In this document: piece by piece, positions 7,565 to 61,812 of the stretch | How the letters are laid out: each line of letters starts with the position of its first letter | Numbering within the stretch: the first letter of the stretch is position 1 | DNA from: an uncultured Candidatus Saccharibacteria bacterium | GTDB lineage: Bacteria > Patescibacteriota > Minisyncoccia > UBA6257 > 1-14-0-10-40-38 | NCBI GenBank assembly: GCA_964543265.1 | Contig: CAZIWN010000001.1 | Coordinates: forward strand, 168,644-232,643 | DNA length: 64,000 bases | Direction: 5' to 3' | Notes under the pieces: generated by a model | What the model saw: only the letters and a program-made list of their open reading frames with translations | Databases searched by the model: none | Told to the model about the DNA's origin: nothing | Translations under genes and position numbers: made by a program

Positions 7565-8062
7565 ATGATCTCAATAATTGTTGCTATAACTAAAGATAGA
7601 GCTATTGGCTTTAAGGGTGGAATGCCGTGGCGTCTTTCTGCTGATTTAAAAAGATTTGCCTCCCTAACCAAAAAACATACAGTTATAATGGGTCGCAAAA
7701 CTCACGAATCCATTTTAAAAGCCCTAGGTAAAAATTTACCAGATAGAAATTCTGTAATTATCACTAATCAAAAAGATTATTCGGCTCCTGGCTGTACTGT
7801 TCTTCATTCCATAAACGACTTACAAAAAACACTAATTAATAATAATGAAGAAGTTTTTATTATTGGCGGAGGCGAAATGTATAAGCAATTTCTGCCATTA
7901 GCCCAAAAACTATATATCACAGAAGTTGGTAAAGATTATGTAGGCGACACTTTTTTTCCAGAATTTAATAAAAATGATTGGAAAGAAATTTTTAGAGAAC
8001 CTCATGTTGCTGACGAAAAAAACGACTCTCCCTATACCTTTATAGAATTAGTCAGAAAATAA
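7565..8062 (+). CDS. folA: Dihydrofolate reductase
   Basis: MISIIVAITKDRAIGFKGGMPWRL...GRKT...IIGGGE motifs typical of DHFR. Confidence 0.9.
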   Translation: MISIIVAITKDRAIGFKGGMPWRLSADLKRFASLTKKHTVIMGRKTHESILKALGKNLPDRNSVIITNQKDYSAPGCTVLHSINDLQKTLINNNEEVFIIGGGEMYKQFLPLAQKLYITEVGKDYVGDTFFPEFNKNDWKEIFREPHVADEKNDSPYTFIELVRK

Positions 8063-8106
8063 ATATACACACTTATCCACAGATAAAGATAAAAGTGTAT
8101 ATACAC
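8063..8106. promoter_or_regulatory. Candidate LexA operator pair in the lexA promoter: ATATACACAC half-site plus perfect 12-bp palindrome GTGTATATACAC (8095-8106) abutting the -10 TATAAT (8114-8119)
   Basis: Perfect palindrome overlapping the -35 position about 80 nt upstream of the lexA ATG; resembles TGT-N-ACA SOS boxes; the same 11-mer TGTATATACAC recurs just upstream of lepA (30066-30078). Confidence 0.35.
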
Positions 8107-8186
8107 ATCTGCTATAATAATTATACGAGCTACCACTGCTCTATTATAAATATTAAAAAATTATCAAAACTTTAAATTTTAAAAAT

Positions 8187-8858
8187 ATGAAAAATAATTT
8201 AACTCCCAACCAAAAAAAGGTTTTAGAATTTATCTCCGCTTATATTAAAACCAATAGTGAATCCCCCACAATTCAAGAAATTCAAGAAAAGTTAAAACTT
8301 TCCTCTTCCCGATCAGTCACTCAATATTTAGAAAGTTTAATTAAAAAAGGATTAGTTGATAAAGCAAGATATAAAAGCAGAGGGATTTCTCTCATCGGCA
8401 AGAATAAAAAAGAAAAAGACACCATAATGCTTCCAGTTTTTGCTTCTGCTGGCTGCGGTAGTCCATCGATCATCGCTCAAAGGACTTTTGATGACTTTGT
8501 AGAAGTTAGTTCCAGCATCGTCAAAGGAAAAAAGAAAGAAAATTTATATGTCATCAAAGCCGTCGGCAATTCCATGAATATGGCTGGTATTAACGACGGA
8601 GATTATGTTTTAGTAGAAAGAATGCCAGATCAAGCCTTTAGTATGGGAGATTCTGTGGTTGCAATTATTGATGACAACGCAGTCATCAAAAAATACGTCC
8701 AATCAAACGATTTAATTGTCTTGCAACCAGCCTCCTCCGATAGCTCCCATAGACCAATCATCTTAGACAGTAAAGCAACCTATAAAATCTTCGGAAAAGT
8801 CTTAAGAACCATCCGCATGCCAAAAGTTGGAGATCTAAGATATGTTCCGGTAATATAA
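8187..8858 (+). CDS. lexA: LexA repressor (S24 peptidase)
   Basis: N-terminal wHTH; Ala-Gly autocleavage site (ASAGCG); catalytic Ser in GNSMNMAGI and Lys in VIKKY. Confidence 0.9.
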   Translation: MKNNLTPNQKKVLEFISAYIKTNSESPTIQEIQEKLKLSSSRSVTQYLESLIKKGLVDKARYKSRGISLIGKNKKEKDTIMLPVFASAGCGSPSIIAQRTFDDFVEVSSSIVKGKKKENLYVIKAVGNSMNMAGINDGDYVLVERMPDQAFSMGDSVVAIIDDNAVIKKYVQSNDLIVLQPASSDSSHRPIILDSKATYKIFGKVLRTIRMPKVGDLRYVPVI

Positions 8859-8897
8859 AATATATTTGACAAAAACTATATGATTATAATATAATAA

Positions 8898-8951
8898 AAT
8901 GGAGTTGATCGAGGATTTACTAGTTTTTACCACAAGAAACGCTCGTTTCTG
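8898..8951 (+). CDS. 17-aa leader-like uORF (MELIEDLLVFTTRNARFW) in GC-rich minicassette F
   Basis: Starts about 10 nt after TTGACA (8865-8870) / TAATAT promoter; followed by a GGAAU..AUUCC hairpin and then the Cys-rich ORF; speculative. Confidence 0.2.
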
Positions 8952-9006
8952 GTGAAGACAGGAATATCCTCACATTCCGCTAAGCGCGGAAAGAAAGGCT
9001 CGTAAG

Positions 9007-9111
9007 ATGAATCTCTTCGGCAAGTCTCGTTTCGACCTGGTCGCCTCCATCTGCTCCGACTGCGTCAAGGGCGACCACTGCGGCGGTTGCAACTGCTGCA
9101 AGCATCGCTGA
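9007..9111 (+). CDS. 34-aa cysteine-rich peptide (MNLFGKSRFDLVASICSDCVKGDHCGGCNCCKHR), GC-rich minicassette F immediately downstream of lexA
   Basis: Upstream promoter with TTGACA at 8865-8870; a 17-aa leader-like uORF (8898-8951) lies between promoter and this ORF; RBS-like AAAGAAAGG; 7 Cys in 34 residues; terminator hairpin UAGCCAACUU..AAGUUGGCUA at 9118-9150; below the ORF-track length cutoff. Confidence 0.4.
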   Translation: MNLFGKSRFDLVASICSDCVKGDHCGGCNCCKHR

Positions 9112-9164
9112 GATCAAATAGCCAACTTTCATTAGCAGTGGAAGTTGGCTACAATTTTATTAAA

Positions 9165-9608
9165 ATGAAAAACAAAATAGATAAAAAAATAAAACCTACC
9201 GTTTTTATTCTGAATAAGTTAGACATAAAAACTACTGGCTCTTGCGAAGGGCATATTTCTTATGGTTCGCCTTGTCCATGGATAAAAATTTCAGAATCAA
9301 TTGATAATAATTTAAAAAAAGAAACGATTAAATTAATAAAAGAATTTTATAAAAATAAAAAAATAAATAAGAATATAAATCTAAAATTAAAGGATGGAAA
9401 ATCCGGATTTTGGCTTTATACTGGCCCTAAAAAAGATTTTGAAAATTGGCGAAAATTAGTTGATAAAACCGCAAAAACTATTTCCAAAGGTAAAACTCCG
9501 GAAAAATATATGATATCTGAAAAGGAAAAGGGATTTAGAAAAATTAATTTATTAAAATATCAGCAAGAAATAAAAGAATTTACAAAATTTTTAAAGACTA
9601 AAATCTAG
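9165..9608 (+). CDS. Hypothetical Lys-rich protein (track ORF 9087 has an upstream extension; probable start MKNKIDKK)
   Basis: AT-rich host-type codons begin at 9165; the upstream part of the track ORF is GC-rich terminator sequence of cassette F. Confidence 0.4.
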   Translation: MKNKIDKKIKPTVFILNKLDIKTTGSCEGHISYGSPCPWIKISESIDNNLKKETIKLIKEFYKNKKINKNINLKLKDGKSGFWLYTGPKKDFENWRKLVDKTAKTISKGKTPEKYMISEKEKGFRKINLLKYQQEIKEFTKFLKTKI

Positions 9609-9610
9609 TA

Positions 9611-11095
9611 TTATTTCTCTAAGTCTAAGACCTCATCAATTCTTATTTGATGCACGAATTCTTTAACGTGGCTAACTAAAACCATCGCTCCAGTAAATTG
9701 GCTCAATGCTTCGGCTATAACTGGGATATGCCTAAAGTTAATATGATTTGTCGGCTCATCCAAGATTAAAAGCCCAGGTTTTTGCAAAACCAACTGCGCA
9801 AAAGCAACTAATCCTTTTTGTCCTTCAGATAAATGTCCAACTTTTAATTTCATCATATCTCCGGTAATCAAAAATCCTGCCGCCACAGATCTCATCTGGT
9901 GATCATCTTTTATTTCCATCACCGAAATTAAAGTGTTATAAACCGTATCTTCAAAATTAAGCGTAGAAAAATCTTGCCTATAATAACCAACTTTAATTCC
10001 CGGCAATATTGTCGCTCCTTTAGCCGTCCCATTGGCGATAGATTCTAATAAGGTACTCTTTCCAATTCCATTTGGGCCTTGCAAGAGTAAATGCTGGCCT
10101 CTTTTTAGATATATCTCTGCTTTTTTAGTGACCGGCTTGTGGTCGTGAATGATCTTAAAAGAAGTAATCGTTAAAATTTTACCCACAATATCTTCCTGTG
10201 AAGGAATAATAAATTTCCTAATAGTTTTATCTTCTTGTCTGGTATCAACCTTTTCCTCTTCCATTTCTTCCACGGCATCTCTCATTCTTTTAGCCACCAA
10301 TCTCATCTTTCCCCCTTTATGAGCGAAGAAATTTGCCTTATCTTTATTTTCTTGGATTTCTTTTTCTAATTGGGCATTTTTTCTATTTTCTTTTTCAATT
10401 CTAGCAGCAATATCTTTAACCACATTAAAATAGTTTCCAGCATACTGCTCGATTTTCTTAGTAAACACATCTAAATATAAAACTCCATCTGAAAATGCAT
10501 TTAAAAAATCGGCATCGTGCGAAATTACCACGCAAGTCTTTTTATAATCAATCAAAAACTTAGTTAAATGCTCAATTCCCGCCTTATCAAGGTTATTTGT
10601 AGGCTCATCAAGTAATAATAAATCAGGATCTTGGATTAAAGCAGAAGCTAAAAGCAATCTTGCCTGTTGTCCGCCAGAAAAAGATTTAACAATCCTATCG
10701 TGTGGCGCTTTTAAATTAACAACCTCCAAAACCGCATCAATTCTTGGATCAAGGTCATAAATTTTATCTTTACCCCCAGCAATTTTTTTATAAGTGCTTT
10801 TAGAAAAAGATTTTTCAAAAAACTCTCTCACCGTCAAATCCATTTGATCTCTTGGAATAACTTGTCTAGCGGTCGCAATAGTGAGCCCATTATCCATACT
10901 TATTCTTCCCGTCTCTGTTGTAAATTCTCCGGTAATAAGTTTAAAGATTGTGCTCTTTCCGGCTCCATTTTGTCCCATTAAAGTCACCTTCATACCTTTT
11001 CTTAAACTAAAACTCACCTCATTTAAAATGGGTTTATTTGGGCCATATTCAAAACTAACTTCATCAAATCTTAAGATTACTTGGTCGTTTGCCAT
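9611..11095 (-). CDS. ABC-F family ATPase (tandem ABC domains, EttA/Uup-like translation factor)
   Basis: Two Walker A motifs (GQNGAGKST, GPNGIGKST) and two signature motifs (FSGGQQ, LSEGQK); the track N-terminal 28 aa (to 11179) read through a terminator hairpin; probable start MANDQVILRF at 11095. Confidence 0.85.
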   Translation of the reverse strand: MANDQVILRFDEVSFEYGPNKPILNEVSFSLRKGMKVTLMGQNGAGKSTIFKLITGEFTTETGRISMDNGLTIATARQVIPRDQMDLTVREFFEKSFSKSTYKKIAGGKDKIYDLDPRIDAVLEVVNLKAPHDRIVKSFSGGQQARLLLASALIQDPDLLLLDEPTNNLDKAGIEHLTKFLIDYKKTCVVISHDADFLNAFSDGVLYLDVFTKKIEQYAGNYFNVVKDIAARIEKENRKNAQLEKEIQENKDKANFFAHKGGKMRLVAKRMRDAVEEMEEEKVDTRQEDKTIRKFIIPSQEDIVGKILTITSFKIIHDHKPVTKKAEIYLKRGQHLLLQGPNGIGKSTLLESIANGTAKGATILPGIKVGYYRQDFSTLNFEDTVYNTLISVMEIKDDHQMRSVAAGFLITGDMMKLKVGHLSEGQKGLVAFAQLVLQKPGLLILDEPTNHINFRHIPVIAEALSQFTGAMVLVSHVKEFVHQIRIDEVLDLEK

Positions 11096-11119
11096 GTCGG
11101 GATATAATATAACATTTTT

Positions 11120-11175
11120 ATATAAAAGAAAATGGCCCGAGGAGTTGCTACCGTAGTAGCAGCCCCCAGGGCCAT
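11120..11175 (-). terminator. Compound intrinsic terminator of the GC-rich 154-aa gene
   Basis: Minus-strand AUGGCCC...GGGCCAU stem with inner GCUGCUAC..GUAGCAAC, followed by UUUUCUUUU. Confidence 0.5.
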
Positions 11176-11196
11176 TCATTGTTCTGCGGTTGTAGT

Positions 11197-11661
11197 TCAG
11201 GCGACCGCGAGCGCCTTGGCGAGAGCTGCACCGAGCGACCCACGGTGGATGCGATCCACCGAAGCCACGGCGGCCCTCAAATCACCGACCGGCATGTCCG
11301 GCCTGGAGACGATCTGCGCCCTGCGAACCGGCGCGACCACCTTCGGACGTTTGGGCTGCGCGACAGGGGCCGCCTTCAGGATCCGAAGCGGGCTCACCAC
11401 GAGGATGAAAACCCTCTTCATCACGTAGGCACCGATGATGTTGAGGCTCTGCACCTCCCACATCTCGCCCGCCTTCGGCTGGTAGGTGGCACCACGGTCG
11501 ATGACGACCTCGGCGACCCATCCGTCGGAGAGGTCCTCGAGTCGGCCCTTCAGCTGCGGCCCGCCCAGCGTGGTGTTGGTCCCGACGAAGAACGTGACCG
11601 CGAACCGCGGCGGCGTGATGTTCCGAATCGCCCGGTCGAGACGCGCATCGAGAAACGCCAT
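11197..11661 (-). CDS. GC-rich minicassette G: 154-aa hypothetical protein with Ala/Pro/Arg-rich C-terminus
   Basis: Minus-strand TTGACA-18-TATAAT promoter (plus 11736-11765), RBS GAGAGGG, own terminator; antisense ORFs in this island look like low-complexity junk. Confidence 0.4.
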   Translation of the reverse strand: MAFLDARLDRAIRNITPPRFAVTFFVGTNTTLGGPQLKGRLEDLSDGWVAEVVIDRGATYQPKAGEMWEVQSLNIIGAYVMKRVFILVVSPLRILKAAPVAQPKRPKVVAPVRRAQIVSRPDMPVGDLRAAVASVDRIHRGSLGAALAKALAVA

Positions 11662-11871
11662 CGGTATACCCTCTCGAAATCCTTCATTCCCTCAAGCGCC
11701 ATCTTGCGACAGCAGAAACTCAAGGTACTTCCTATATTATATCATAATATATCTATATTTGTCAATAGATATACAAATAACCCTTAATTTTAATGATTTT
11801 ATCAACTATTGACTTATATATTAATTATTGCTATAATTAGGAACAGAACAAGGTCAAAAAAGGAGAACGTC

Positions 11872-12090
11872 ATGATTCACTGGTTCCAGGTCTGCGACGT
11901 CGTGGAGGCACTTCTAGACATCACCACTCCCGGTTTTGGCAACGAAGGCACCACGATTTTCAAGGGAACACGGGGAATCGTGGAAAAAATTCTCCGTTCA
12001 GAAGGCAACCTCAGGGTTTCCTGGGAGTTGGGATCAAGTCAGACCATCAGCTTCGTCGTTGCTGAAGCTGGGGTCAAAGCAATCGGCTAG
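11872..12090 (+). CDS. GC-rich minicassette H: 73-aa hypothetical protein, divergent from G
   Basis: TTGACT (11809-11814)-17-TATAAT (11832-11837), RBS AAAGGAGAA, ATG 11872; compound terminator AGCGCCGC..GCGGCGCU + U-rich at 12094-12160. Confidence 0.45.
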   Translation: MIHWFQVCDVVEALLDITTPGFGNEGTTIFKGTRGIVEKILRSEGNLRVSWELGSSQTISFVVAEAGVKAIG

Positions 12091-12152
12091 TAAGAGACTA
12101 GCCGCCGCCAATAAGCGCCGCAAGTTCGAGCATATCGAACAAGCGGCGCTTT

Positions 12153-15100
12153 CTATTTCAATAAACTCTCTTCAAACGCCTTTATTCCGTTTATATCTTT
12201 CGAAAATTCAGATATATCTGGAAAATCCAGATTTTTTATTCTTTTATATATAACTTCTATCAATTTTCTCATTCTCTCAACCTCTTTATTTTCAATTTTC
12301 AATTCCAAATCAATTATTTTCCCTTTTTCTGGTTCTATAAATTCAATAATCCCTTTATTCATAAAATATTTACCGCCAAAGTCTTGGGAATTTTCAACTA
12401 ATAATTTATAAAATATAAGCTGATTCCTATATTTCCAAGCTTTAATTTTGTCGTATTTATCTTTTGGCTCCCAATCTTCTATATTTTTTCCAGTCTTAAA
12501 ATCAGTCACCACAATCTCAAAATTAATTAATCTCATTTTATCAATCTTCCCAGTTAGATGTGCTTCTCCTAAAACCACTCCCTGATTTTTAAAATTAAAT
12601 TCGATTTTATCTTGCGACAAGAAATCAGATTTTTTATTTTCATAAAACACAGCTAAAGATTTCTTACCCCTGCCAAGCATTAAATTAAAATCTTTCTCGT
12701 TTAATCTTTCATTTATTAATAACCTTTCAAATCTTAATAAAATTTCTTCTATATCTGGTAAAGATTCTTTATTTTTTAAATAATGATAAATAAATTGAAT
12801 TGTTCCATGGATTGCCGAGCCATAAGCCCCAGAAGGAGTTTTCGGTTCCGGAAACATTAATAAATTCTTTTCCAAAAAAGCTAATGGCCCCGCATCTGCC
12901 ACGTTTAAAAAGTTTTGAAAATGAGTCACGCTTAATTGATATTTTTCCAACATTTTATCAAGTAAAGCTTTTTCATTTTCAACTATTGGTTTAGCAAAAT
13001 TAACACTCCAATTATTAATAGCTAATTGCTCCGCGCTTTCTTTAAAATCATTAACGCTTATTTCTTTTTCCTCAATTAAGCTCTTTTCTCCAATTTCTGG
13101 ATGTAAGAATTCCAGTTTCACACTATCTTTTCCTCTGGAATCTTTTTTGTAATAAGTTAAATATAATTTTTTCTTTGTTCTAGTTATTGCTGTATAAAAC
13201 AATCTCAACTTATCATCTTGCGTATCTCCGGCAGGATTAATACTAAGATTCATAGGCATCGGTATATCTCGACTACTCCTTCCACTATTCCAAACATCTT
13301 CTTGGCAATTAATCACAAAAACCGCTTCAAACTCCAATCCTTTTGCTTTGTGTGCCGTTAATAATTGAACCGCTTCATTAGAATTAGAAAAAGCGCTTAT
13401 ATTATTAATTGGAATATTGTTTTTAATATGTAGGTCAAAAAACTCCAGCATATCTTTAACTTTCAATGGTTTTCCACGGTGATACTCTCTTAAACTTCCA
13501 AAAAAAGATTGCAAAGATGATAAGAATTTCAAATAATCAGCTCTTTTCTCTTTAAAAACAGATTCTCCAAAATAATAAGATTTAAAACCGGTATTAAATA
13601 TAGCCCTTGCCTCGCCAGAGCTGTAGGTAGAAGGCGGGTCATCATTATCTTCATCTGGCAAAACCAAATCAGTTGAACCTATAAGCTCATGAAGTATTTC
13701 TTCTGCGGTTTTATAATTTATTTTTCCGCTTAAATCTATAAAGAAGTTAGCTATTTCGCTAAATTTTCCTCCCATTTCCCTCATTATCGCTAACCACGGC
13801 TTATGTTCTGCCCTAGCTTTAATAGAAATATCCCAAATATTAACCCTATCTATTCCCCAAAACGGATAACTTAATATTTCCGGCAACAAATCATCCGCCT
13901 CTTCTTCTTTTCGCATTATAGAATTGGCAAATCTCGCCATAGTTACAAGTTGAACAATATGGGGTTCATTTAAAACATTTTGTTCTCTCTCATAAGAAAC
14001 TGGTATTTTTTTATTATGAAAATGTAAAACTAATTGCTCCAAATCTTTATGTTCGCGGGCAATAATCGCAATTTCATTTTTTGTAGTGCCGGATTTTATC
14101 AATCTTTCAACCTCCTCAGCAATCCAAAAATATTCAGCTTCTCTATTAATAAATTCCAAACCTAAAATCCCAGAATCATCTTTTTTATTATTCTCTGCAA
14201 TTAATTCTTTTTTTAAATCAGTAATTACATTTTCTAATCTATTCTTTCCTTTTTTAATAACTCCTAGCGCCACATTTAAAATTTCTTGCGTTGATCTATA
14301 GTTTTTCTTTAAGGCAATTAAATTTACGTCTTTATACTTCTTTTTAAAATCAAAAATATTAGATATTTCTGCCCCCTGAAATCTATAGATCGCCTGATCA
14401 TCGTCTCCAACAACCATTATATTTGGCCTACCTTCATTTACATCATTATCAGTCAATAAATGAAGTATTTTCATCTGGGCATCATTAGTGTCCTGAAATT
14501 CATCCACTAATATATATTGATATCTTTCCTGCAGATCTAATTTTACGCCGATGTTGTTCTGGAGCATTGTAATCGTGTCCAAAATCATATCGTTGTAGTC
14601 GTAATAATTATTTTTTTTCATACTACCCAAATAATCCTCATATATTTGAGCTAAAGCATTCATTTTTTCCAGATTAACAAAATCTTCCAGATGAGTTTTT
14701 TTGTCATCTCCCTTAACGGTCCAATCTTTTTTCCATTCGGTTATATATGTAGTGGATTTATCTTCTTCTGATTTCTGCAACGCCACTGAAAGCGAGTTAA
14801 CTAAAACATTATTATATTCTCCAGTATTTTTATTCTGAATATTCTTTATTAATTCATAAATACCAGGAAACATTTTTTTTGAAACCCTATCATTAAAAAC
14901 CTCGCCGATTAATTTATCAGAAAACTCTATCTCTTTTTTATTTTTCTCCAGTATTTTTTTAAATTCAGCAGGCGAAATTCCCGCTTTTTTTAGATTCTCA
15001 ATCGCTTTTTTGGTTTTATATAAATAAGTAAATTGCTCCTCGTGCTTTGATGCTAGTGGATTTCTATAATCTAAAGATTTAAAAACATCTTCTAAAATTT

Positions 15101-20067: not shown

Positions 20068-20259
20068 TTATGAGAACTGAAGACGAAGAACCTGAACGAA
20101 CACACATGGATCAAGATGCTTCTTCCTCCTTGCCTTGAGACAGGCTCTAAACCTAGCCTGTCTTTCGGACACAGCAGTCGACTCAACGGTAACAATTTCT
20201 CCGCTGGGACACCTCACGGAAGCGGAGAAGTTGCGCCACACAGCCGGTGCACGCTTCAT
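20068..20259 (-). CDS. GC-rich minicassette J gene 2: 63-aa basic protein (MKRAPAVWRNF...), translationally coupled to gene 1
   Basis: ATGA stop/start overlap at plus 20256-20259; RBS GGGAGGGGAG inside gene 1; the track ORF has a 7-aa upstream extension. Confidence 0.4.
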   Translation of the reverse strand: MKRAPAVWRNFSASVRCPSGEIVTVESTAVSERQARFRACLKARRKKHLDPCVFVQVLRLQFS

Positions 20260-20471
20260 GGAATGAATCTCCCCTCCCAAAGAGCAAACTCTGGGGACCT
20301 AGAGATGACGTCAATCGCCACCCAGTCAGAGCTTGGAACTTCGTTTTCTGTTTTGAATTTCTCCAAAACAAAGACTCTAGCCCATTTTTCAGACGAAGCA
20401 CAAACCCTCACCTTATAAGTGCATCTCCTCCATGAAACAAGGGCAGACCAAGCGACCGATCTTCTGGCCAT
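20256..20471 (-). CDS. GC-rich minicassette J gene 1: 71-aa protein (MARRSVAWSALVSWRRCTYKV...)
   Basis: Minus-strand TTACAT / CATAAT promoter and RBS AAGGAGATGAGG then ATG at 20471; its stop overlaps the next start as ATGA. Confidence 0.4.
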   Translation of the reverse strand: MARRSVAWSALVSWRRCTYKVRVCASSEKWARVFVLEKFKTENEVPSSDWVAIDVISRSPEFALWEGRFIP

Positions 20472-27055: not shown

Positions 27056-27231
27056 CTATTTAAATCTAACAGAAATAAAAGAAATATTAAAATTTATAAA
27101 TTACAGCAAATTTCCCAAATCTTTATTTTTTAGTAAATACAAGGCATTCCGAAGAAGCGATATTTTAAGCCTAGCGCATATCGCGAGGAGGAATAACGAA
27201 GTAGTTACTAATAAAGATAAAGATTACAAAA

Positions 27232-28140
27232 TTACCACTTGCCGGAGGAACCGCCACCGCCCGATCGCCCCCCTCCAAATCCACCAAAGCCACCCCCGCC
27301 TCCAAACTTTCCACCACCAAAACCTCTCCCCCTCATCCACCAAGGTATTGTTGCTCCCATCTCCTTATAAGCCCTATATCTCTTTGAGACAAAATAATCA
27401 AAAATAAGTCCGGCAAGCGATAATCCAATAATCGACAAAATTCCAACATATAGGAATCCAAAAATAATACCCAAAACAGCTCCAAATCCTCCCCCTAAAA
27501 TACCCCCCAGCCACCAAGATTTTGATCTTCCTAAAATATTTGCTAATAAATTAACAACAAAAATTATTAAAAAAATAAAGAAAAATGGATCTATATTTTT
27601 AAAAAAAGAATATTTACTAAAATCAGTACTTTCCGTAACTATTCCCTCAGTTTCAAATCCGTTTGATATTTTAGAAATCATTCCCAAAATTCCATTTTTT
27701 ATTCCCAAAAAATAACTTCCATTTTTAAATGATGGAATAATTAAATTTTGAATGATCAGATGAGAATCAGCATCGGTTAAATATGCTTCTAATCCATAAC
27801 CCACCTCTATTCTTAATTCTCTTTCCTTTATAGCAACCAGCAAAAGCGCTCCATTATCTTTATTTCTTTGCCCAACTCCCCAATCCTTAAATAATTTTTC
27901 AGAAAAATTTTCTATAGTATCTCCATTAAGAGTATTAATAGTAGCCACCGAAATTTGATTACCAGTTTTATCGCTAAAATTATAAAGAATTGTCTCTAGA
28001 GCATTTTTTTCTTGATCACTTAAAACGCCGGCATAATCATTAATAAATCCGGTGGGCTTTCCCGGAAAATCATAAGCAAAAACCAGTCTTGGTATAACTA
28101 AGGCCAAGCCGAAAATTACAATCTTCAGCTTTAAATTCAT
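27232..28140 (-). CDS. TPM-domain protein (YgcG-like) with TM and Gly-rich C-terminal tail
   Basis: Signal peptide; TPM block GFINDYAGVLS..EKNALE; TM helices; GGGFGGFGGG tail. Confidence 0.7.
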   Translation of the reverse strand: MNLKLKIVIFGLALVIPRLVFAYDFPGKPTGFINDYAGVLSDQEKNALETILYNFSDKTGNQISVATINTLNGDTIENFSEKLFKDWGVGQRNKDNGALLLVAIKERELRIEVGYGLEAYLTDADSHLIIQNLIIPSFKNGSYFLGIKNGILGMISKISNGFETEGIVTESTDFSKYSFFKNIDPFFFIFLIIFVVNLLANILGRSKSWWLGGILGGGFGAVLGIIFGFLYVGILSIIGLSLAGLIFDYFVSKRYRAYKEMGATIPWWMRGRGFGGGKFGGGGGFGGFGGGRSGGGGSSGKW

Positions 28141-30065: not shown

Positions 30066-30078
30066 TTGTATATACACG
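30066..30078. promoter_or_regulatory. Second copy of the 11-mer TGTATATACAC (candidate LexA half-operator) directly upstream of lepA
   Basis: Exact 11-nt match to the lexA-promoter palindrome core; in an AT-rich genome this is only suggestive. Confidence 0.2.
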
Positions 30079-31907: not shown

Positions 31908-31975
31908 TCCAATTTGACAATATATTACAATACTGCTATACTAATAGCATCGATCCAACAAAAGGAGAATTTCAC

Positions 31976-32089
31976 ATGTCGGTATGGGACGAAACACCGC
32001 TGCCTCCGCTTAACTGGAAAGATAAAGTCCTTATTCTCATTTTTATCGTTCTCGCCCTAGTTGCGGTTGTGGCAATGACTCACATGTGA
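31976..32089 (+). CDS. GC-rich minicassette K: 37-aa single-TM peptide (MSVWDETPLPPLNWKDKVLILIFIVLALVAVVAMTHM)
   Basis: TTGACA (31914-31919)-17-TATACT (31937-31942), RBS AAAAGGAGAA, ATG 31976; terminator AUGGACCAUCA..AGAUGGUCCAUUUUUU at 32096-32150; below the track cutoff. Confidence 0.4.
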   Translation: MSVWDETPLPPLNWKDKVLILIFIVLALVAVVAMTHM

Positions 32090-32365
32090 GCATCTAATGG
32101 ACCATCATCAGATCGTATTTTGATAGATGGTCCATTTTTTATGACACAACAAAAAACCCCGAGATTTAACTCGAGGTACTTTGTAGTCCAGCTTTGTTAT
32201 AAAGTTCCATTACTTTAATAACAAGTGGGCGGGCTCAATCGCGTTTCCACGGAAACGGATGCTATCACCTTGCCCTGATATAATTTTTAATCTGGAACTT
32301 ATCTTAGCTGGACATAATAATTATACTCTTATTTTCAGAATGTATATAGTCTCTGTGTATAAAAA

Positions 32366-39323: not shown

Positions 39324-39376
39324 TCTGTTAGTAAGCCATAATTGACTTTATATAACATACTTGCTATTATAGACGT

Positions 39377-39860
39377 CAGCACCTGTGACCGTCCTTTGTT
39401 CTGGATTTCCAATTAGGCAGACAGTTCGGGCGATGCTGTCTATGCGGAGATTCGAATGAGTCGGTCTGTTACGCTGTCTGGTCTCGTTCTTTTTCACAGC
39501 GAGGCTTGGAGGAGCCTCTTCTATGCGCGCACCGTGTTGATCCGTTTCCCGAGGGTCGCTCTGAAGTTCCTTCCCACTCCTCGCTTTGCGAGAACTTTCT
39601 GGCAACTGATCGTTCAGGGCTGGAGACTGCTTTGCAGGATCCTTGATTCTGAACCCGTTACCATGATGTTCCTGGCACTCCTGCTGCTCGGGGTCGTCAC
39701 GATGCGTTCGTGCGATCCGACGGCCGAAGAGCTGAGAGCGATGGAGTCTTCTTCCGGCACCCTCCTTCCGTGATCTGATCGGAGTCGACATCTTCTCATG
39801 CGTAGCATCTGGGTAGTGAGCGCCTTCAAACCTGCGGGTTCTGGGGGCGTTTTTTTTAGA
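39377..39860 (+). other. GC-rich minicassette M: promoter TTGACT (39377-39382)-17-TATTAT (39400-39405), about 430-nt GC-rich transcript, U-rich terminator about 39835-39858. Possible 105-aa ORF 39456-39773 (RBS GCGGAGA; single TM-like segment)
   Basis: Coding versus non-coding unresolved; the antisense 174-aa ORF (39348-39872) is low complexity and has no room for a promoter. Confidence 0.3.
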
Positions 39861-39880
39861 AAAATTGACCAATTAATTAA

Positions 39881-41633: not shown

Positions 41634-42131
41634 CTATTCGCCCATCACCTCAAGACGATCGAACAGAGACTTGAACCAAGAGAGAGCACCAACTTTTCTT
41701 GCAACCCTATTACCCATACCAGGGCGCATCTGACAAAAAGAGACAGCAAAAGCAATAGTTATTGCAGAGTCTATCTCGGGAGAAATCCCAACAAAGGCCA
41801 CAACGAGTCCACTATGACTCACAGCTCGGGATTCCGCGGGTGGAAGAGCAGCTGAAGATCCAGCGACCCTAACAACCATCTCTCTTGCGACAATACAACT
41901 TCGCGAAGCTGTTGGATTATGAGGAATTGTTCCAATCCTCGCGCAGATAACTTCTTGGCCTGTATCACTATTAGCAAGACAGAAGTATCCGCCACTGACT
42001 TCACCAAGCTTGAATACCCTTCTTGCCTGCTGGAAAATCATGCCAATCCGCGAAACAGCATCTGCAGAATTAGCAACAATAGCGACAGTAGTAGCCCCAT
42101 CTCTCTCAGCGACCATCGTCGGTTGAGACAC
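41634..42131 (-). CDS. GC-rich minicassette N: approximately 166-aa hypothetical protein, possibly Ntn-hydrolase/proteasome(HslV)-like (GATTVAIV after a short propeptide)
   Basis: Minus-strand TTGACC-17-TAATAT promoter abutting the upstream gene stop; RBS AAGGGGAGGA then GTG (42131); the track ORF starts at an upstream TTG; weak similarity to HslV RRV..G..AG..D block. Confidence 0.35.
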   Translation of the reverse strand: MSQPTMVAERDGATTVAIVANSADAVSRIGMIFQQARRVFKLGEVSGGYFCLANSDTGQEVICARIGTIPHNPTASRSCIVAREMVVRVAGSSAALPPAESRAVSHSGLVVAFVGISPEIDSAITIAFAVSFCQMRPGMGNRVARKVGALSWFKSLFDRLEVMGE

Positions 42132-42214
42132 GCCGATCCTCCCCTTTTTGGCAGGTTTTTTGGAAACTTCAAAGAGCTGAAACAATATTAAATTAATAAA
42201 ATAAACTGGTCAAT

Positions 42215-43064: not shown

Positions 43065-43146
43065 GATATTTGACAATAATATAACAGTATGCTATTATCC
43101 AGATAGTTCCGAAAGTTAAAAATCGAGCAGGAAAGCGAGGTTAGAA

Positions 43147-43320
43147 ATGGATACGCAAAAACTCGTGGAACTCGTACGCCAATGCACAAAAATCGTCGTT
43201 AGAGAAGGGCAGAATACCACTGGCGATATGTCCGCTGTGATTCCCTTGCTACAAGCTGCGCTGAGAGATTTGCCCTCCGATCAGGTCCAGAAGGCCATTC
43301 TCGAATACAACAATGATTAA
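43147..43320 (+). CDS. Cassette O: 57-aa hypothetical protein (MDTQKLVELVRQCTKIVVREGQNTTGDMSAVIPLLQAALRDLPSDQVQKAILEYNND)
   Basis: TTGACA (43070-43075)-17-TATTAT (43093-43098), RBS AAAGCGAGG, ATG 43147; dual-hairpin terminator 43362-43435; GC-rich. Confidence 0.45.
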   Translation: MDTQKLVELVRQCTKIVVREGQNTTGDMSAVIPLLQAALRDLPSDQVQKAILEYNND

Positions 43321-43502
43321 GACAAGTAATACTGCCTAGGAACGTCCTGATATTTCGATATGTGTCGCGCAAAGCGACACGCCCCCCCCCGTTGGAGGAA
43401 TTTCGATGATTTCTCCCGGGGGCTTCGTTTTTTTATCTCAAATCGGGAATATAAATATATTCATTTTGTCGTGCTATAATATTTCTAATATCCGATACTG
43501 TT

Positions 43503-43631
43503 CGGAGCAAAAATAAAATACCCCTTCTGGGGTTGTTTTATTTTTGTTTTGAAATGGATCGAACCGAAGGTCAAAATCACGCAGTGATGAGATTTCGACT
43601 GAAAGGAGAAGCGATCCCTACCTCCGGAGCC
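43503..43631 (+). repeat. Direct repeat copy 2 (129 bp), identical to 42936-43064
   Basis: Same sequence, including the terminator and the 21-bp tRNA 3'-end mimic. Confidence 0.75.
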
Positions 43632-43700
43632 ACTTATTTGACAATATTATTTATATATGATATTCTTTTTATAGAACAATTTCCAACAAGGAGAGAAGAG

Positions 43701-43898
43701 GTGCACCGCTATCTCATTACAATTTCGTTCACGCCCGGTCGAGATGGATCTGAGAGAACGACGGAGTGTTACGAAGTGAGTATGGAGCAGCCGATTCGTT
43801 CCATGGATCAACTCAATGCAGAAATCAGGAAGCTCTGCGATGTAAAAAAGATTGCTGGGCACGTGACCCCGATTGCGTTTTCTCGATTCTCCGAATAA
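43701..43898 (+). CDS. Cassette P: 65-aa hypothetical protein (GTG start; VHRYLITISFTPGRDGSERTTECYEV...)
   Basis: TTGACA (43638-43643) promoter homologous to cassette O, RBS AAGGAGAG, GTG 43701; the track ORF 43533-43898 runs spuriously through the repeat. Confidence 0.4.
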   Translation: MHRYLITISFTPGRDGSERTTECYEVSMEQPIRSMDQLNAEIRKLCDVKKIAGHVTPIAFSRFSE

Positions 43899-43920
43899 CT
43901 CAAACCAGAGGAGACGTCCC

Positions 43921-44094
43921 GTGAATCAGTCCAGCGGACAGGAACCGAAAGTTCAACAGGAAAAGCCGCGACAAGAATTCCCTCCCTGCACCAACAAGGA
44001 ATGCGAGTGCTATGAGTCTTCTGCTCGTGTCGGGCCAGCTGCATCGATCCCGCGCGCCTACTACTGCTACGAGTGCTGCAACATCTTCTTCTGA
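43921..44094 (+). CDS. Cassette Q: 57-aa cysteine-rich peptide (..PPCTNKECECYESSARVGPAASIPRAYYCYECCNIFF)
   Basis: RBS GAGGAG 6 nt before GTG 43921; 7 Cys in the C-terminal 36 residues; terminator 44110-44177 homologous (about 78%) to cassette O terminator. Confidence 0.4.
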   Translation: MNQSSGQEPKVQQEKPRQEFPPCTNKECECYESSARVGPAASIPRAYYCYECCNIFF

Positions 44095-44206
44095 TGCGAA
44101 TTCTAATATATCGCGCAAAGCGCGAAACCCCCGGTTAGAGAAATTTAGATGATTTCTCACGGGGGATTCTTTTTTTGTCTCAAATGTAGTGTGATATTAT
44201 TACAAT

Positions 44207-57125: not shown

Positions 57126-57315
57126 AAGGATAATTTTGCTTAATTGACATAAATTACCCATTCCTCTATACTTATGACCGAGTATGAGAACGTTCATTTC
57201 CTTCTTATTTCAGTAAATATTTAAGGGAGTGCGTGGATAGGTTTGTCCAATACAAAACTGGCCCAAATCTAATGGTTCGGCTCATGCGATTTATAAATAT
57301 TTTACGAAATAAAGA

Positions 57316-57648
57316 ATGGCAAAAAGATTATATTTCGGAAACCTTTCATGGGACACAACTGATAAGAGTCTCATGGCTGCGTGTTCTGAATTCGGCACCG
57401 TTACTTCAGCGACTGTCATCACTGATAAAATGACTGGCAGATCAAAAGGTTTCGGATTCGTCGAAATGTCATCCGACGCAGAAGCTGATAAAATTATCGC
57501 TTCTATGAACGGAAAAAACTTCGAAGGAAGAGACATCACCGTTAATGAAGCCAGACCAAAAGAAGAGAGACCAGAAGGCGGCTTCGGAGGTGGAAGAGGC
57601 AGAATGGGCGGTGGAATGGGTGGAGGAATGGGAAGAGGAAGATATTAA
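57316..57648 (+). CDS. RRM-type RNA-binding protein with Gly-rich tail
   Basis: RNP2 LYFGNL and RNP1 KGFGFVEM; about 165-nt structured leader. Confidence 0.85.
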   Translation: MAKRLYFGNLSWDTTDKSLMAACSEFGTVTSATVITDKMTGRSKGFGFVEMSSDAEADKIIASMNGKNFEGRDITVNEARPKEERPEGGFGGGRGRMGGGMGGGMGRGRY

Positions 57649-61103: not shown

Positions 61104-61147
61104 TTTAATATTGAAAAATATTTTTAAAAAAGCTATAAATATAAATA

Positions 61148-61335
61148 GTCCTTCAAACCAGTTCAGGGAGAATAAGCTTGGGGAAAAGACGGGTTCGCCG
61201 CGAAGCACGAATGTCTGGCATCTGGAAGCGATTCACTTGCAGGCTGATACGGACAATCGCGTGGGCTAGGGTTCGCCCCTAACCAAGCTTCGCAAACCCC
61301 TCTCGCAGCCGAAAGACCTTCGGCTGCTTTTTTTT
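61148..61335 (+). ncRNA. Candidate structured sRNA R: closing helix AAGCUUGGGG...CCCCUAACCAAGCUU, then terminator module
   Basis: TTGAAA-17-TATAAA promoter (61112-61140); no ORF; terminator GCAGCCGAAAGACCUUCGGCUGC + U8 (61292-61335). Confidence 0.3.
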
Positions 61336-61410
61336 ACTTGAAAAATAACTAATATAATGCTAAAAAACATATAGCCCTTCAATTTCATCGCCAACCAGGA
61401 GGAATTCAAA

Positions 61411-61755
61411 TTGACCCAAAAGAAGAAAGGCGGCGAAATTAAAACAATTAAGCCGCTGATGGATCCTCTTACTGATCCCGCAACTGCAGGAATCAGAAGA
61501 CAGATTCAGGTACAGATCCGAAGGCTTCAACAAGGAGACGGCGTCGAGAAAACTGGTCCGAAACAGACCAAGCATAAGTGCGCGACACCTCGTTGCAAGG
61601 GACGCCTCGTCGAAGACATCTGCCATGAGTTCGACCCCACTTCGGGACCACCTATTATCGGTCCCGGCTCCAGATCACAGTTCAACAGAGTTTCTCGTGG
61701 CTTCTACTGCAACACCTGCGGCGTAAAATATCAGTTCCCTCCAAAGAAGAAATGA
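61411..61755 (+). CDS. GC-rich minicassette S: 114-aa basic zinc-ribbon protein (TTG start)
   Basis: RBS CAGGAGGA 7 nt before TTG 61411; C..C(x3)C and C..C pairs; flanked by duplicated terminator module. Confidence 0.4.
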   Translation: MTQKKKGGEIKTIKPLMDPLTDPATAGIRRQIQVQIRRLQQGDGVEKTGPKQTKHKCATPRCKGRLVEDICHEFDPTSGPPIIGPGSRSQFNRVSRGFYCNTCGVKYQFPPKKK

Positions 61756-61769
61756 GCTCTTGCTCATTT

Positions 61770-61812
61770 CGCAAACCCCTCTCGCAGCCGAAAGACCTTC
61801 GGCTGCTTTTTA
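61770..61812 (+). terminator. Second copy of the 45-nt terminator module CGCAAACCCCUCUCGCAGCCGAAAGACCUUCGGCUGCUUUUU
   Basis: Near-identical to 61292-61335. Confidence 0.6.

Follow-up and report, generated by a model that had tools for sequence, protein, structure and literature searches.

The locus considered here raises the question of why a gene for a very small cysteine-rich protein lies directly after lexA, and whether the two are functionally connected. Both are found in a stretch of 64,000 nucleotides (contig CAZIWN010000001.1; hereafter the window) from an uncultured Candidatus Saccharibacteria bacterium, with an overall guanine plus cytosine (GC) content of 34%. We propose, with a probability of roughly 0.72, that the locus combines an autoregulated lexA gene with an independent, recently inserted cassette (cassette F), which resembles a phage moron and encodes a probable metal-binding mini-protein. 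From 8034 to 13858 the window agrees at 100% identity with L001, an assembly made independently (Logan), and therefore the features located there are not artefacts of a single assembly. The homologues of the LexA protein encoded in the window belong to Parcubacteria/Patescibacteria (candidate phyla radiation, CPR) and come from groundwater-type metagenomes.

Comparison with close relatives identifies the cassette as an insertion. In contigs L025 and L026, which share about 92% nucleotide identity with the window, a homologue of the gene that follows cassette F, ORF147 (85% identity; 2045-2482 in L025), begins 9 nt after the lexA stop codon and F is absent. Likewise, a convergent ABC-F gene is found 7 nt after the lexA stop codon of L019, leaving the slot empty, and in L007 a different open reading frame (ORF) of about 108 codons occupies the slot (864-1188), again with no F. 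Where measured, the LexA proteins of these cassette-free relatives are 92-95% identical to that of the window (L007, 95%; L019, 92%). The body of the cassette displays a GC content of 45-59% against the 34% background, and the GC content at third codon positions (GC3) of its ORF reaches 0.83, compared with 0.33 in lexA and 0.19 in ORF147. Because GC3 is very high and relatives of about 90% nucleotide identity lack the cassette, these observations argue for a recent gain of F from a GC-rich, probably viral, donor. Neither terminal inverted repeats nor target-site duplications could be called at the cassette ends, where only low-complexity AT-rich matches were seen, and in a blastn search of the cassette against phages and plasmids the AT-rich consensus promoter alone was matched, in Bacillus plasmids. 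The 9-nt spacing between lexA and ORF147 in L025 and L026 is operon-like, and ORF147 is likely to be an SOS-controlled gene in these relatives. According to our proposal, a moron-like cassette of about 300 bp would have been recently inserted between lexA and this former operon partner. Since only 13 nt separate the end of the cassette terminator from the start codon of ORF147, transcription of the latter probably no longer depends on the LexA-controlled promoter and may now be fed by read-through from the cassette promoter. The ORF147 product, which contains TGSCEGH...GSPCPW, has no Pfam match.

Cassette F is an autonomous transcription unit, composed of a promoter, a hairpin in the 5' untranslated region (UTR), a Shine-Dalgarno (SD) sequence, an ORF and a terminator (Table 1). 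A GC-rich cassette right after lexA, with a strong promoter, a hairpin ahead of the cysteine-rich ORF and its own terminator, had already been recognized in a preliminary description made from the letters of the sequence, and all of these elements were recovered. Only two promoters in the 64 kb match the consensus at 12 of 12 positions, that of F being one of them, and seven reach at least 11/12, most of them at GC-rich islands. High constitutive expression of the cassette would be expected from such a promoter, and the 5'-UTR hairpin may stabilize the mRNA. The preliminary description had also placed a leader-like upstream ORF (uORF) of 17 residues ahead of the peptide gene. An ORF is indeed present at 8899-8955, although it comprises 18 codons for amino acids and has no support as a leader; it was rejected since no codon periodicity is seen over 8899-9006, no homologue was found and it coincides with the 5'-UTR hairpin. 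Its ATG (8899-8901) starts 3 nt after the -10 hexamer and is probably located at or upstream of the transcription start. Read-through or selenocysteine insertion at the TGA codon (8953-8955), joining the uORF to the peptide ORF, was dropped because 8899-9006 lacks coding periodicity.

Several lines of evidence support that the 34-codon ORF, as first suggested, is a real gene, namely its paralogues, its viral homologues and the pattern of synonymous substitutions. The ORF shows strong codon periodicity (GC content of 0.46, 0.49 and 0.83 at the first, second and third codon positions, respectively). From a weak tblastn match, two paralogues, A and B, were located in tandem on the minus strand of the interval between cysS and rmuC; each is preceded by a GGGGGA-type SD and they have one terminator in common. 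Their GC3 is about 0.5, and the pair may be an older acquisition than F. When the window is translated in all six frames, C..C.{3,8}HCG.C.CC, the strict form of the pattern, has exactly three occurrences, each at the C-terminus of a small ORF provided with an SD and 3-4 codons ahead of the stop. Twelve of the 14 core residues are identical between F and A, and 8 of these 12 are encoded by different codons, which is indicative of purifying selection on the protein.

Further members were recovered by back-translated motif scans of IMG/VR contigs followed by filtering for context. At least seven clear homologues, mostly tiny genes, are found in viral contigs of 43-68% GC, where they sit in tightly packed phage-type arrays or before genes for ParB-like, terminase or NUDIX proteins. 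SDs were identified upstream of the members in L054, L080 and L099, with GAAAGGAAA in L054 and L080 at the same distance as the SD of F, and those of L058, L087 and L088 overlap or abut neighboring genes. All clear viral members have in common a glycine two residues before the histidine, and given that this glycine was not part of the search pattern, it represents an independent confirmation of the family. In a ten-member alignment (A3) nine positions are invariant, and the only conserved part of the product is a 16-residue block of six cysteines and a histidine, CxxCxxGxHCGxCxCC. The shortest members (23-29 residues) are essentially this motif alone, and consequently the N-terminal segment of the others is not a conserved leader. 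In L087, the next ORF on the reverse strand, with an ATGA overlap, encodes another Cys/His-rich mini-protein, MKGCPDASTCSCSCHGCCHGDHGSGCHGSGCHMNCTK, an indication that different mini-proteins of metal-binding type are clustered in viral contigs.

The homology search advised in the preliminary description had a divided outcome, since the two paralogues and the viral homologues were found and the curated models returned nothing. Pfam, NCBIfam, PHROGs and the PDB contained nothing relevant to the family at E <= 10, the sole model match being that of paralogue A to ROK (E = 0.023), below the cutoff of that model. A phmmer search of the peptide against 1.84 billion representatives returned only two marginal matches, to long repeat proteins, and, in a tblastn comparison of the peptides with annotated phages, a match in the "Fur regulated protein" of Escherichia phage Fraca was discarded as chance, as it falls inside a 280-residue protein. 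Gene callers did not call ORFs of this family in any of the assemblies of this genome that were examined, and no description of it was found in a literature search. The family thus appears to be undescribed and carried mainly by viruses, and the CPR genome seems to have captured it at least twice, as F and as the A/B tandem.

Regarding the function of the product, the Cys6-His block (CX2C-X5-C-X2-C-X-CC plus the invariant histidine) most likely takes its fold around a single metal ion or a small cluster, of metal or iron-sulfur type. The product as a whole would be a soluble mini-protein. The dense cysteines and the short chain are reminiscent of metallothioneins, of zinc-knuckle and zinc-ribbon mini-proteins and of CX2CX5C iron-sulfur motifs (WhiB-like, SPASM/twitch), and the cysteine spacing together with the invariant histidine would be compatible with tetrahedral ligation of a metal or cluster. 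In contrast to the known cysteine-rich metal-binding families, however, F and its relatives match no Pfam, NCBIfam or PHROG model and no PDB chain. We know of no family with this exact spacing and the invariant glycine and histidine.

The manner of insertion invites comparison with phage morons, the criteria of which were set out by Hendrix and colleagues (as summarised in PMC2920897). Like morons, F lies between two adjacent genes and is absent from close relatives, possesses a promoter and a terminator of its own as well as a deviant GC content (45-59% vs about 34%), has homologues in diverse viral contigs, and occupies a slot that behaves as a hotspot, holding another ORF in L007 and none in L019. 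Unlike those of morons, its flanks are chromosomal housekeeping genes (folA, lexA, ORF147 and the genes for ABC-F and an AddA/UvrD-like helicase). No integrase, repeats or prophage context were seen around it. As the recipient is a bacterial chromosome, the cassette is referred to here as moron-like and not as a moron in the strict sense. A further comparison is with TisB, DinQ and SymE, which F resembles in being a small ORF transcribed as a separate unit close to an SOS gene; it differs from them in having no LexA site, no hydrophobic helix and no sign of an antisense RNA, and in not being conserved beside lexA.

The other half of the proposal concerns lexA itself. The gene, found as first described, encodes a protein with an N-terminal domain of Pfam PF01726 (4.9e-16, residues 3-66) and a C-terminal domain of PF00717 (5.2e-20, residues 83-205). 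By motif only, a cleavage-site-like Ala88-Gly89 pair can be placed in FASAGCGSP, and a putative Ser/Lys dyad would be formed by Ser129 in GNSM and Lys168/169 in VIKK. The protein has 212 homologues at E <= 1e-20, and those named by their source are annotated as LexA from Patescibacteria; by these features it is a canonical LexA repressor. In L025 and L026 a thymidylate kinase gene on the minus strand, tmk (564-1184 in L025), sits between folA and lexA; in the window there is no tmk at this place and the folA stop codon directly precedes the lexA control region (8060-8063).

The control region contains the perfect 12-bp palindrome GTGTATATACAC, which was initially proposed as a LexA operator and is composed of two 8-bp GTGTATAT units in inverted, overlapping orientation. 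Further upstream, two units are found on the minus strand, ATATACAC at 8063-8070, with ATATACAC(AC) spanning 8063-8072, and TTATCCAC at 8073-8080. The first of these had been noted before as a half-site; it is indeed present, and it represents a third copy of the unit, on the other strand, which forms with TTATCCAC a direct pair with a 10-bp period. Perfect palindromes are common in this AT-rich DNA (35 of 12 bp in the window where about 31 would be expected; with at least four G/C, 12 where the expectation is about 9), and hence the significance of GTGTATATACAC derives from its conservation and not from its existence. Leaving aside L001, which is the window's own sequence, the palindrome is conserved or symmetrically varied at the lexA loci of nine contigs besides the window, among them L007, L020/L021, L024, L025/L026, L113 and L114, and it can be traced down to about 64% LexA protein identity (78% for L020/L021, 65% for L024 and 64% for both L113 and L114). 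It is unchanged in L007, L025/L026 and L114, and in L020/L021, L024 and L113 it is replaced by GTTTATATAAAC, a joint change at positions 3 and 10 which keeps the dyad. The distance to the extended -10 is that of the window in L007 (TGtTATACT) and in L025/L026 (TGcTATAAT in L025), with the -10 at the same position, and in L114 the palindrome lies immediately 5' of lexA. The upstream element is kept in L025/L026, L007 (TTATTCACA), L020/L021 and L114, and is weaker in L022 and L024.

A cluster test with the relaxed unit GTKKATAW, requiring at least two units within 40 bp, gave a similar picture. In 13 of 15 loci the clusters are confined to about 125 bp upstream of lexA, and the single cluster of the 64-kb window is the one upstream of lexA. 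Exact copies of GTGTATAT number six in the window, and half of them fall within 45 bp upstream of the gene. Parcubacteria that are more distant have this unit, or one akin to it, upstream of lexA in tandem direct copies spaced at a 9-bp period (L003, GTGGATAT-A-GTGGATAT; L008, GTGTATAT-A-TTGTATAT). Taken with its conserved position relative to the -10, its symmetric variant and the restriction of the clusters to lexA, the palindrome is a good candidate for a LexA autoregulatory operator. The phylogenetic footprint itself is solid, and autoregulation by LexA is its most economical reading. We hypothesize that LexA binds the cluster of GTGTATAT-type units, both the 12-bp inverted pair abutting the extended -10 and the direct pair about 20 bp further upstream, and that, once bound, it occludes RNA polymerase and represses its own gene.

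Near-matches to the palindrome elsewhere in the window amount to three, against 0.85 expected, which is at chance level, since 9 of 100 shuffles reach three; they include one upstream of lepA (30066) and one at the 3' end of uppP (32355). The former, TTGTATATACAC (30066-30077), has one mismatch and ends 5 nt before the start codon of lepA (EF4), and it could be either chance or a second LexA site.

For Patescibacteria, a LexA-binding motif was reportedly described by Sanchez-Osuna, Barbe and Erill (2017), and a paper from the same laboratory places it among direct-repeat motifs (PMC7739468). The LexA boxes described for other bacteria are CTGT-N8-ACAG in E. coli, GAAC-N4-GTTC in Gram-positive bacteria and direct repeats such as GTTC-N7-GTTC (PMC8565304). 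As in classical LexA autoregulation, a canonical LexA is accompanied by a dyad element which abuts the -10 of its own gene and is conserved in orthologues, and TGTATATACA resembles a shortened core of the E. coli SOS-box consensus. Unlike classical SOS boxes, the element is a 12-bp palindrome of overlapping 8-bp units with an additional direct pair upstream.

Several points weigh against this interpretation of the locus. For the operator, recA and other SOS genes are absent from the 64-kb window, so that a regulon cannot be shown, and the second upstream unit, TTATCCACA (8073-8081), is a perfect DnaA-box consensus, to which DnaA rather than LexA could bind. For the cassette, the case for a gain in the window over a loss in the four relatives is made on grounds of parsimony and codon usage. 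Metal binding is proposed from the cysteine pattern alone, and AlphaFold2, run without metal, yielded a poor model, with a predicted local distance difference test score (pLDDT) of 62 and a predicted template modelling score (pTM) of 0.23. For the size of the cysteine-rich family, in turn, the only source is motif-guided scanning in viral contigs, with its bias to the pattern used, and a profile built from the three paralogues returned no candidates among 5.8 billion proteins. As a separate observation, TTATCCACA is kept upstream of lexA in several relatives, and its reverse complement resembles the GTGGATAT unit of L003.

Table 1. Positions of the features of the lexA locus, of the cysteine-rich family and of a second insertion in the window.
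Feature	Position	Strand	Remarks
Upstream operator-like element	8063-8081	-	Direct repeat of the unit, period 10
Palindrome GTGTATATACAC	8095-8106	.	Perfect, 12 bp; candidate LexA autoregulatory operator
Extended -10 of lexA, TGcTATAAT	8110-8118	+	3 nt 3' of the palindrome
lexA, 223 aa	8187-8858	+	Winged-helix DNA-binding domain and S24 peptidase domain
Cassette F	~8862-9161	+	~300-bp insertion relative to close relatives; junctions AT-rich, ends uncertain by a few bases
Sigma-70-type promoter, TTGACA-18-TATAAT	8866-8895	+	12/12 consensus
5'-UTR hairpin	8908-8975	+	-24.9 kcal/mol; z = -5.7 vs shuffles
SD-like AGAAAGG	8994-9000	+	6 nt 5' of the ATG; unpaired in the predicted fold
34-aa Cys6-His ORF, MNLFGKSRFDLVASICSDCVKGDHCGGCNCCKHR	9007-9111	+	Motif CxxCxxGxHCGxCxCC at residues 16-31
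Intrinsic terminator	9119-9161	+	15-bp stem (9119-9151), 3-nt loop, then CAATTTTATT; z = -5.5
ORF147, conserved protein	9165-9608	+	Directly 3' of lexA in relatives; separated from it by cassette F here
154-aa gene	11197-11661	-	Divergent pair in the 11132-12153 insertion
72-aa gene	11872-12090	+	SD AAGGAG; terminator-like hairpin 3'
Paralogue B, MKLLAHLLVLFHIRSRPCRLCFEGHGHCGTCLCCYGIK, 38 aa	63767-63883	-	SD AGGGGGA; terminator 3', then rmuC
Paralogue A, MRNLLASLIARVGRGFGFGFCSDCDPKRGRHCGGCPCCEELI, 42 aa	63916-64000	-	Runs off the window end; complete in L028 (3486-3614)
Viral member, L054			MSLKRFRSSLRSWLHRRFCTSCQMGVHCGGCTCCS
Viral member, L080			MLNLLFVIWRSRKPCWRCRVGRHCGNCHCCK
Viral member, L099			MLRKIKLALHKAFCINCQFGNHCGRCTCCKG
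Viral member, L087			MRRQCDRCKEGRHCGYCSCCYGRS
Viral member, L088			MDKCVDCMTGSHCGACNCCASRP
Viral member, L093			MCWNCAAGQHCGNCACCKPKKYTAVGSSK
Viral member, L086			96-aa protein, motif near the N-terminus
L058			Looser relative

Alternative explanations for the cassette were also weighed. We consider it improbable that the GC-rich island is the gene of a structured noncoding RNA of about 250 nt, in which the ORF would be accidental. The island as a whole does fold far better than shuffled sequences (z = -6.7 on the plus strand and -3.0 on the minus strand), it is a GC-rich island with its own promoter and terminator in an AT-rich genome, and an ORF of 35 codons is not improbable in a sequence of 55% GC. 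Nevertheless, the folding signal resides in the UTR hairpin and the terminator, the coding sequence folding no better than shuffles (z = -1.6), and the ORF has the codon periodicity of a gene; moreover, the paralogues and the viral genes, with DNA that cannot be aligned, keep the peptide motif through synonymous codon changes. No Rfam model was matched at its gathering threshold, and the sole match with E < 1, a eukaryotic small nucleolar RNA (E = 0.9, 8794-8937), is at chance level. Transfer-messenger RNA, RNase P, 6S RNA, signal recognition particle RNA, riboswitches and T-boxes were ruled out for the island by Rfam and ARAGORN. On the opposite strand, an ORF of 50 codons, MKVGYLISAMLAAVATAAVV... 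(8980-9132, minus strand), is the only gene that the public Logan annotation calls in the island, and in an exact look-up of the small ORFs it was the only one ever called; it is the Ala/Val/Gly-rich mirror frame of the GC3-rich peptide gene and constitutes a mis-annotation.

To the same low degree we would credit an attenuator, in which the ORF would act as a cysteine-sensing leader peptide and stalling of ribosomes at its six cysteine codons would control read-through of the terminator into ORF147 or rmuC. Both loci consist of one or more cysteine-rich ORFs, a terminator about 8-10 nt after the stop codon and a promoterless gene on the same strand, and one of them adjoins cysS. However, cysS is divergently transcribed, the genes downstream are unrelated to cysteine metabolism, ORF147 works without such a leader in relatives, and no alternative antiterminator pairing is evident. 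In addition, the invariant glycine and histidine and the fixed cysteine spacing point to selection on the protein and not on codon content, and most viral members lie in tightly packed arrays, often overlapping or abutting their neighbors, with a hairpin following in only some cases.

A precursor of a ribosomally synthesized and post-translationally modified peptide (RiPP), with a leader, a cysteine-rich core and a maturase in the manner of ranthipeptides, SCIFF peptides or methanobactins, is more doubtful still. Six cysteines in a short C-terminal core that follows a variable N-terminal segment would suit such a product, as would the tandem of A and B, since tandem precursor genes are typical of RiPP loci. 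Yet no radical S-adenosylmethionine enzyme or other maturase is found beside F, A/B or the viral members, whose neighbors are lexA, ORF147, cysS, rmuC and genes for a ParB-like protein, terminase, NUDIX and small phage proteins; the members of 23-29 residues are essentially leaderless, and no NCBIfam precursor model was matched at E < 10.

The least probable alternative is the one put forward in the preliminary description, that of an SOS-linked small toxin or regulatory peptide belonging to the LexA regulon and comparable to tisB, dinQ or symE, for although the cassette adjoins lexA and, like numerous type I toxin loci, carries a promoter and a terminator of its own, this link is largely refuted by the comparative data, the cassette being missing in L025, L026, L019 and L007, all of them close relatives that share this lexA, no operator unit or half-site being found on either strand of 8841-9180, the peptide not being hydrophobic or membrane-like (grand average of hydropathy, GRAVY, -0.11; best 15-residue window 0.77, against 3.74 in a transmembrane peptide encoded at 31976-32089), and both the paralogues between cysS and rmuC and the viral homologues occurring with no lexA nearby.

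If an autoregulated lexA and an independent cassette are indeed what the locus contains, the lexA half is largely routine, its interest lying in comparative data on the architecture of operators in Patescibacteria, where one unit is used either inverted or in tandem. The other half would indicate that very small expression cassettes of foreign origin are acquired by reduced CPR genomes in the junctions between genes, in this case even breaking up a lexA operon, and that a family of six-cysteine mini-proteins with no entry in Pfam, NCBIfam, PHROGs or the PDB, and left uncalled in the assemblies of this genome that were examined, is common to viruses and this CPR genome. It also follows that a GC-rich island in an AT-rich genome need not be an RNA gene. 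A broader proposal, which we put forward tentatively and regard as rather unlikely in its entirety, is that the unrecognised family (23-42 residues) consists of virus-borne effectors that bind a metal or cluster, escape gene callers and have been repeatedly domesticated by a CPR bacterium in the form of autonomous cassettes with strong expression, and that LexA in this clade of Parcubacteria uses the 8-bp half-site of its relatives, re-arranged from tandem direct repeats to an overlapping inverted pair. If true, the latter would be a natural example of an operator geometry switched without a change in the recognised sequence, and a metal cluster combined with a host or phage target would make the former a novel class of phage accessory proteins of very small size.

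Other parts of the window hold comparable elements. At 11132-12153 the window has another GC-rich insertion (about 1,020 bp, up to 71% GC), which is absent from L025; in that contig the ABC-F gene abuts the gene of the AddA/UvrD-like helicase at the corresponding place. The insertion carries a divergent gene pair under consensus promoters of the forms TTGACA-18-TATAAT and TTGACT-17-TATAAT, its junctions are AT-rich, and it is evidence that this genome habitually makes such acquisitions. Neither the 154-residue nor the 72-residue product had an exact look-up match in the protein collection; the pair is possibly of toxin-antitoxin or defence type. The window also contains seven GC-rich islands (1103-1937, 20082-20367, 27165-27396, 39355-39878, 41729-42185, 43142-44159 and 61139-61800) with 50-62% GC, for which no Rfam match was found, nor any Pfam match for the ORFs tried; they may be foreign genes or novel RNAs. 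The GC-rich islands of the window have no similarity to each other, and hence they do not form a repeat family.

Consensus promoters are also found at 43070 and 57144. About 140 nt 3' of the latter, the near-consensus TTGACA-17-TATACT, within 57144-57648, lies a gene (45% GC) for a small RNA-binding protein of 110 residues with an RNA recognition motif (PF00076). Finally, a small-gene cassette at 31914-32135, with the promoter TTGACA-17-TATACT, an SD (AAGGAG) and a terminator-like hairpin, encodes a hydrophobic peptide of 37 residues with a single transmembrane segment, MSVWDETPLPPLNWKDKVLILIFIVLALVAVVAMTHM (31976-32089), which looks the most like a type I toxin of all items in the window.

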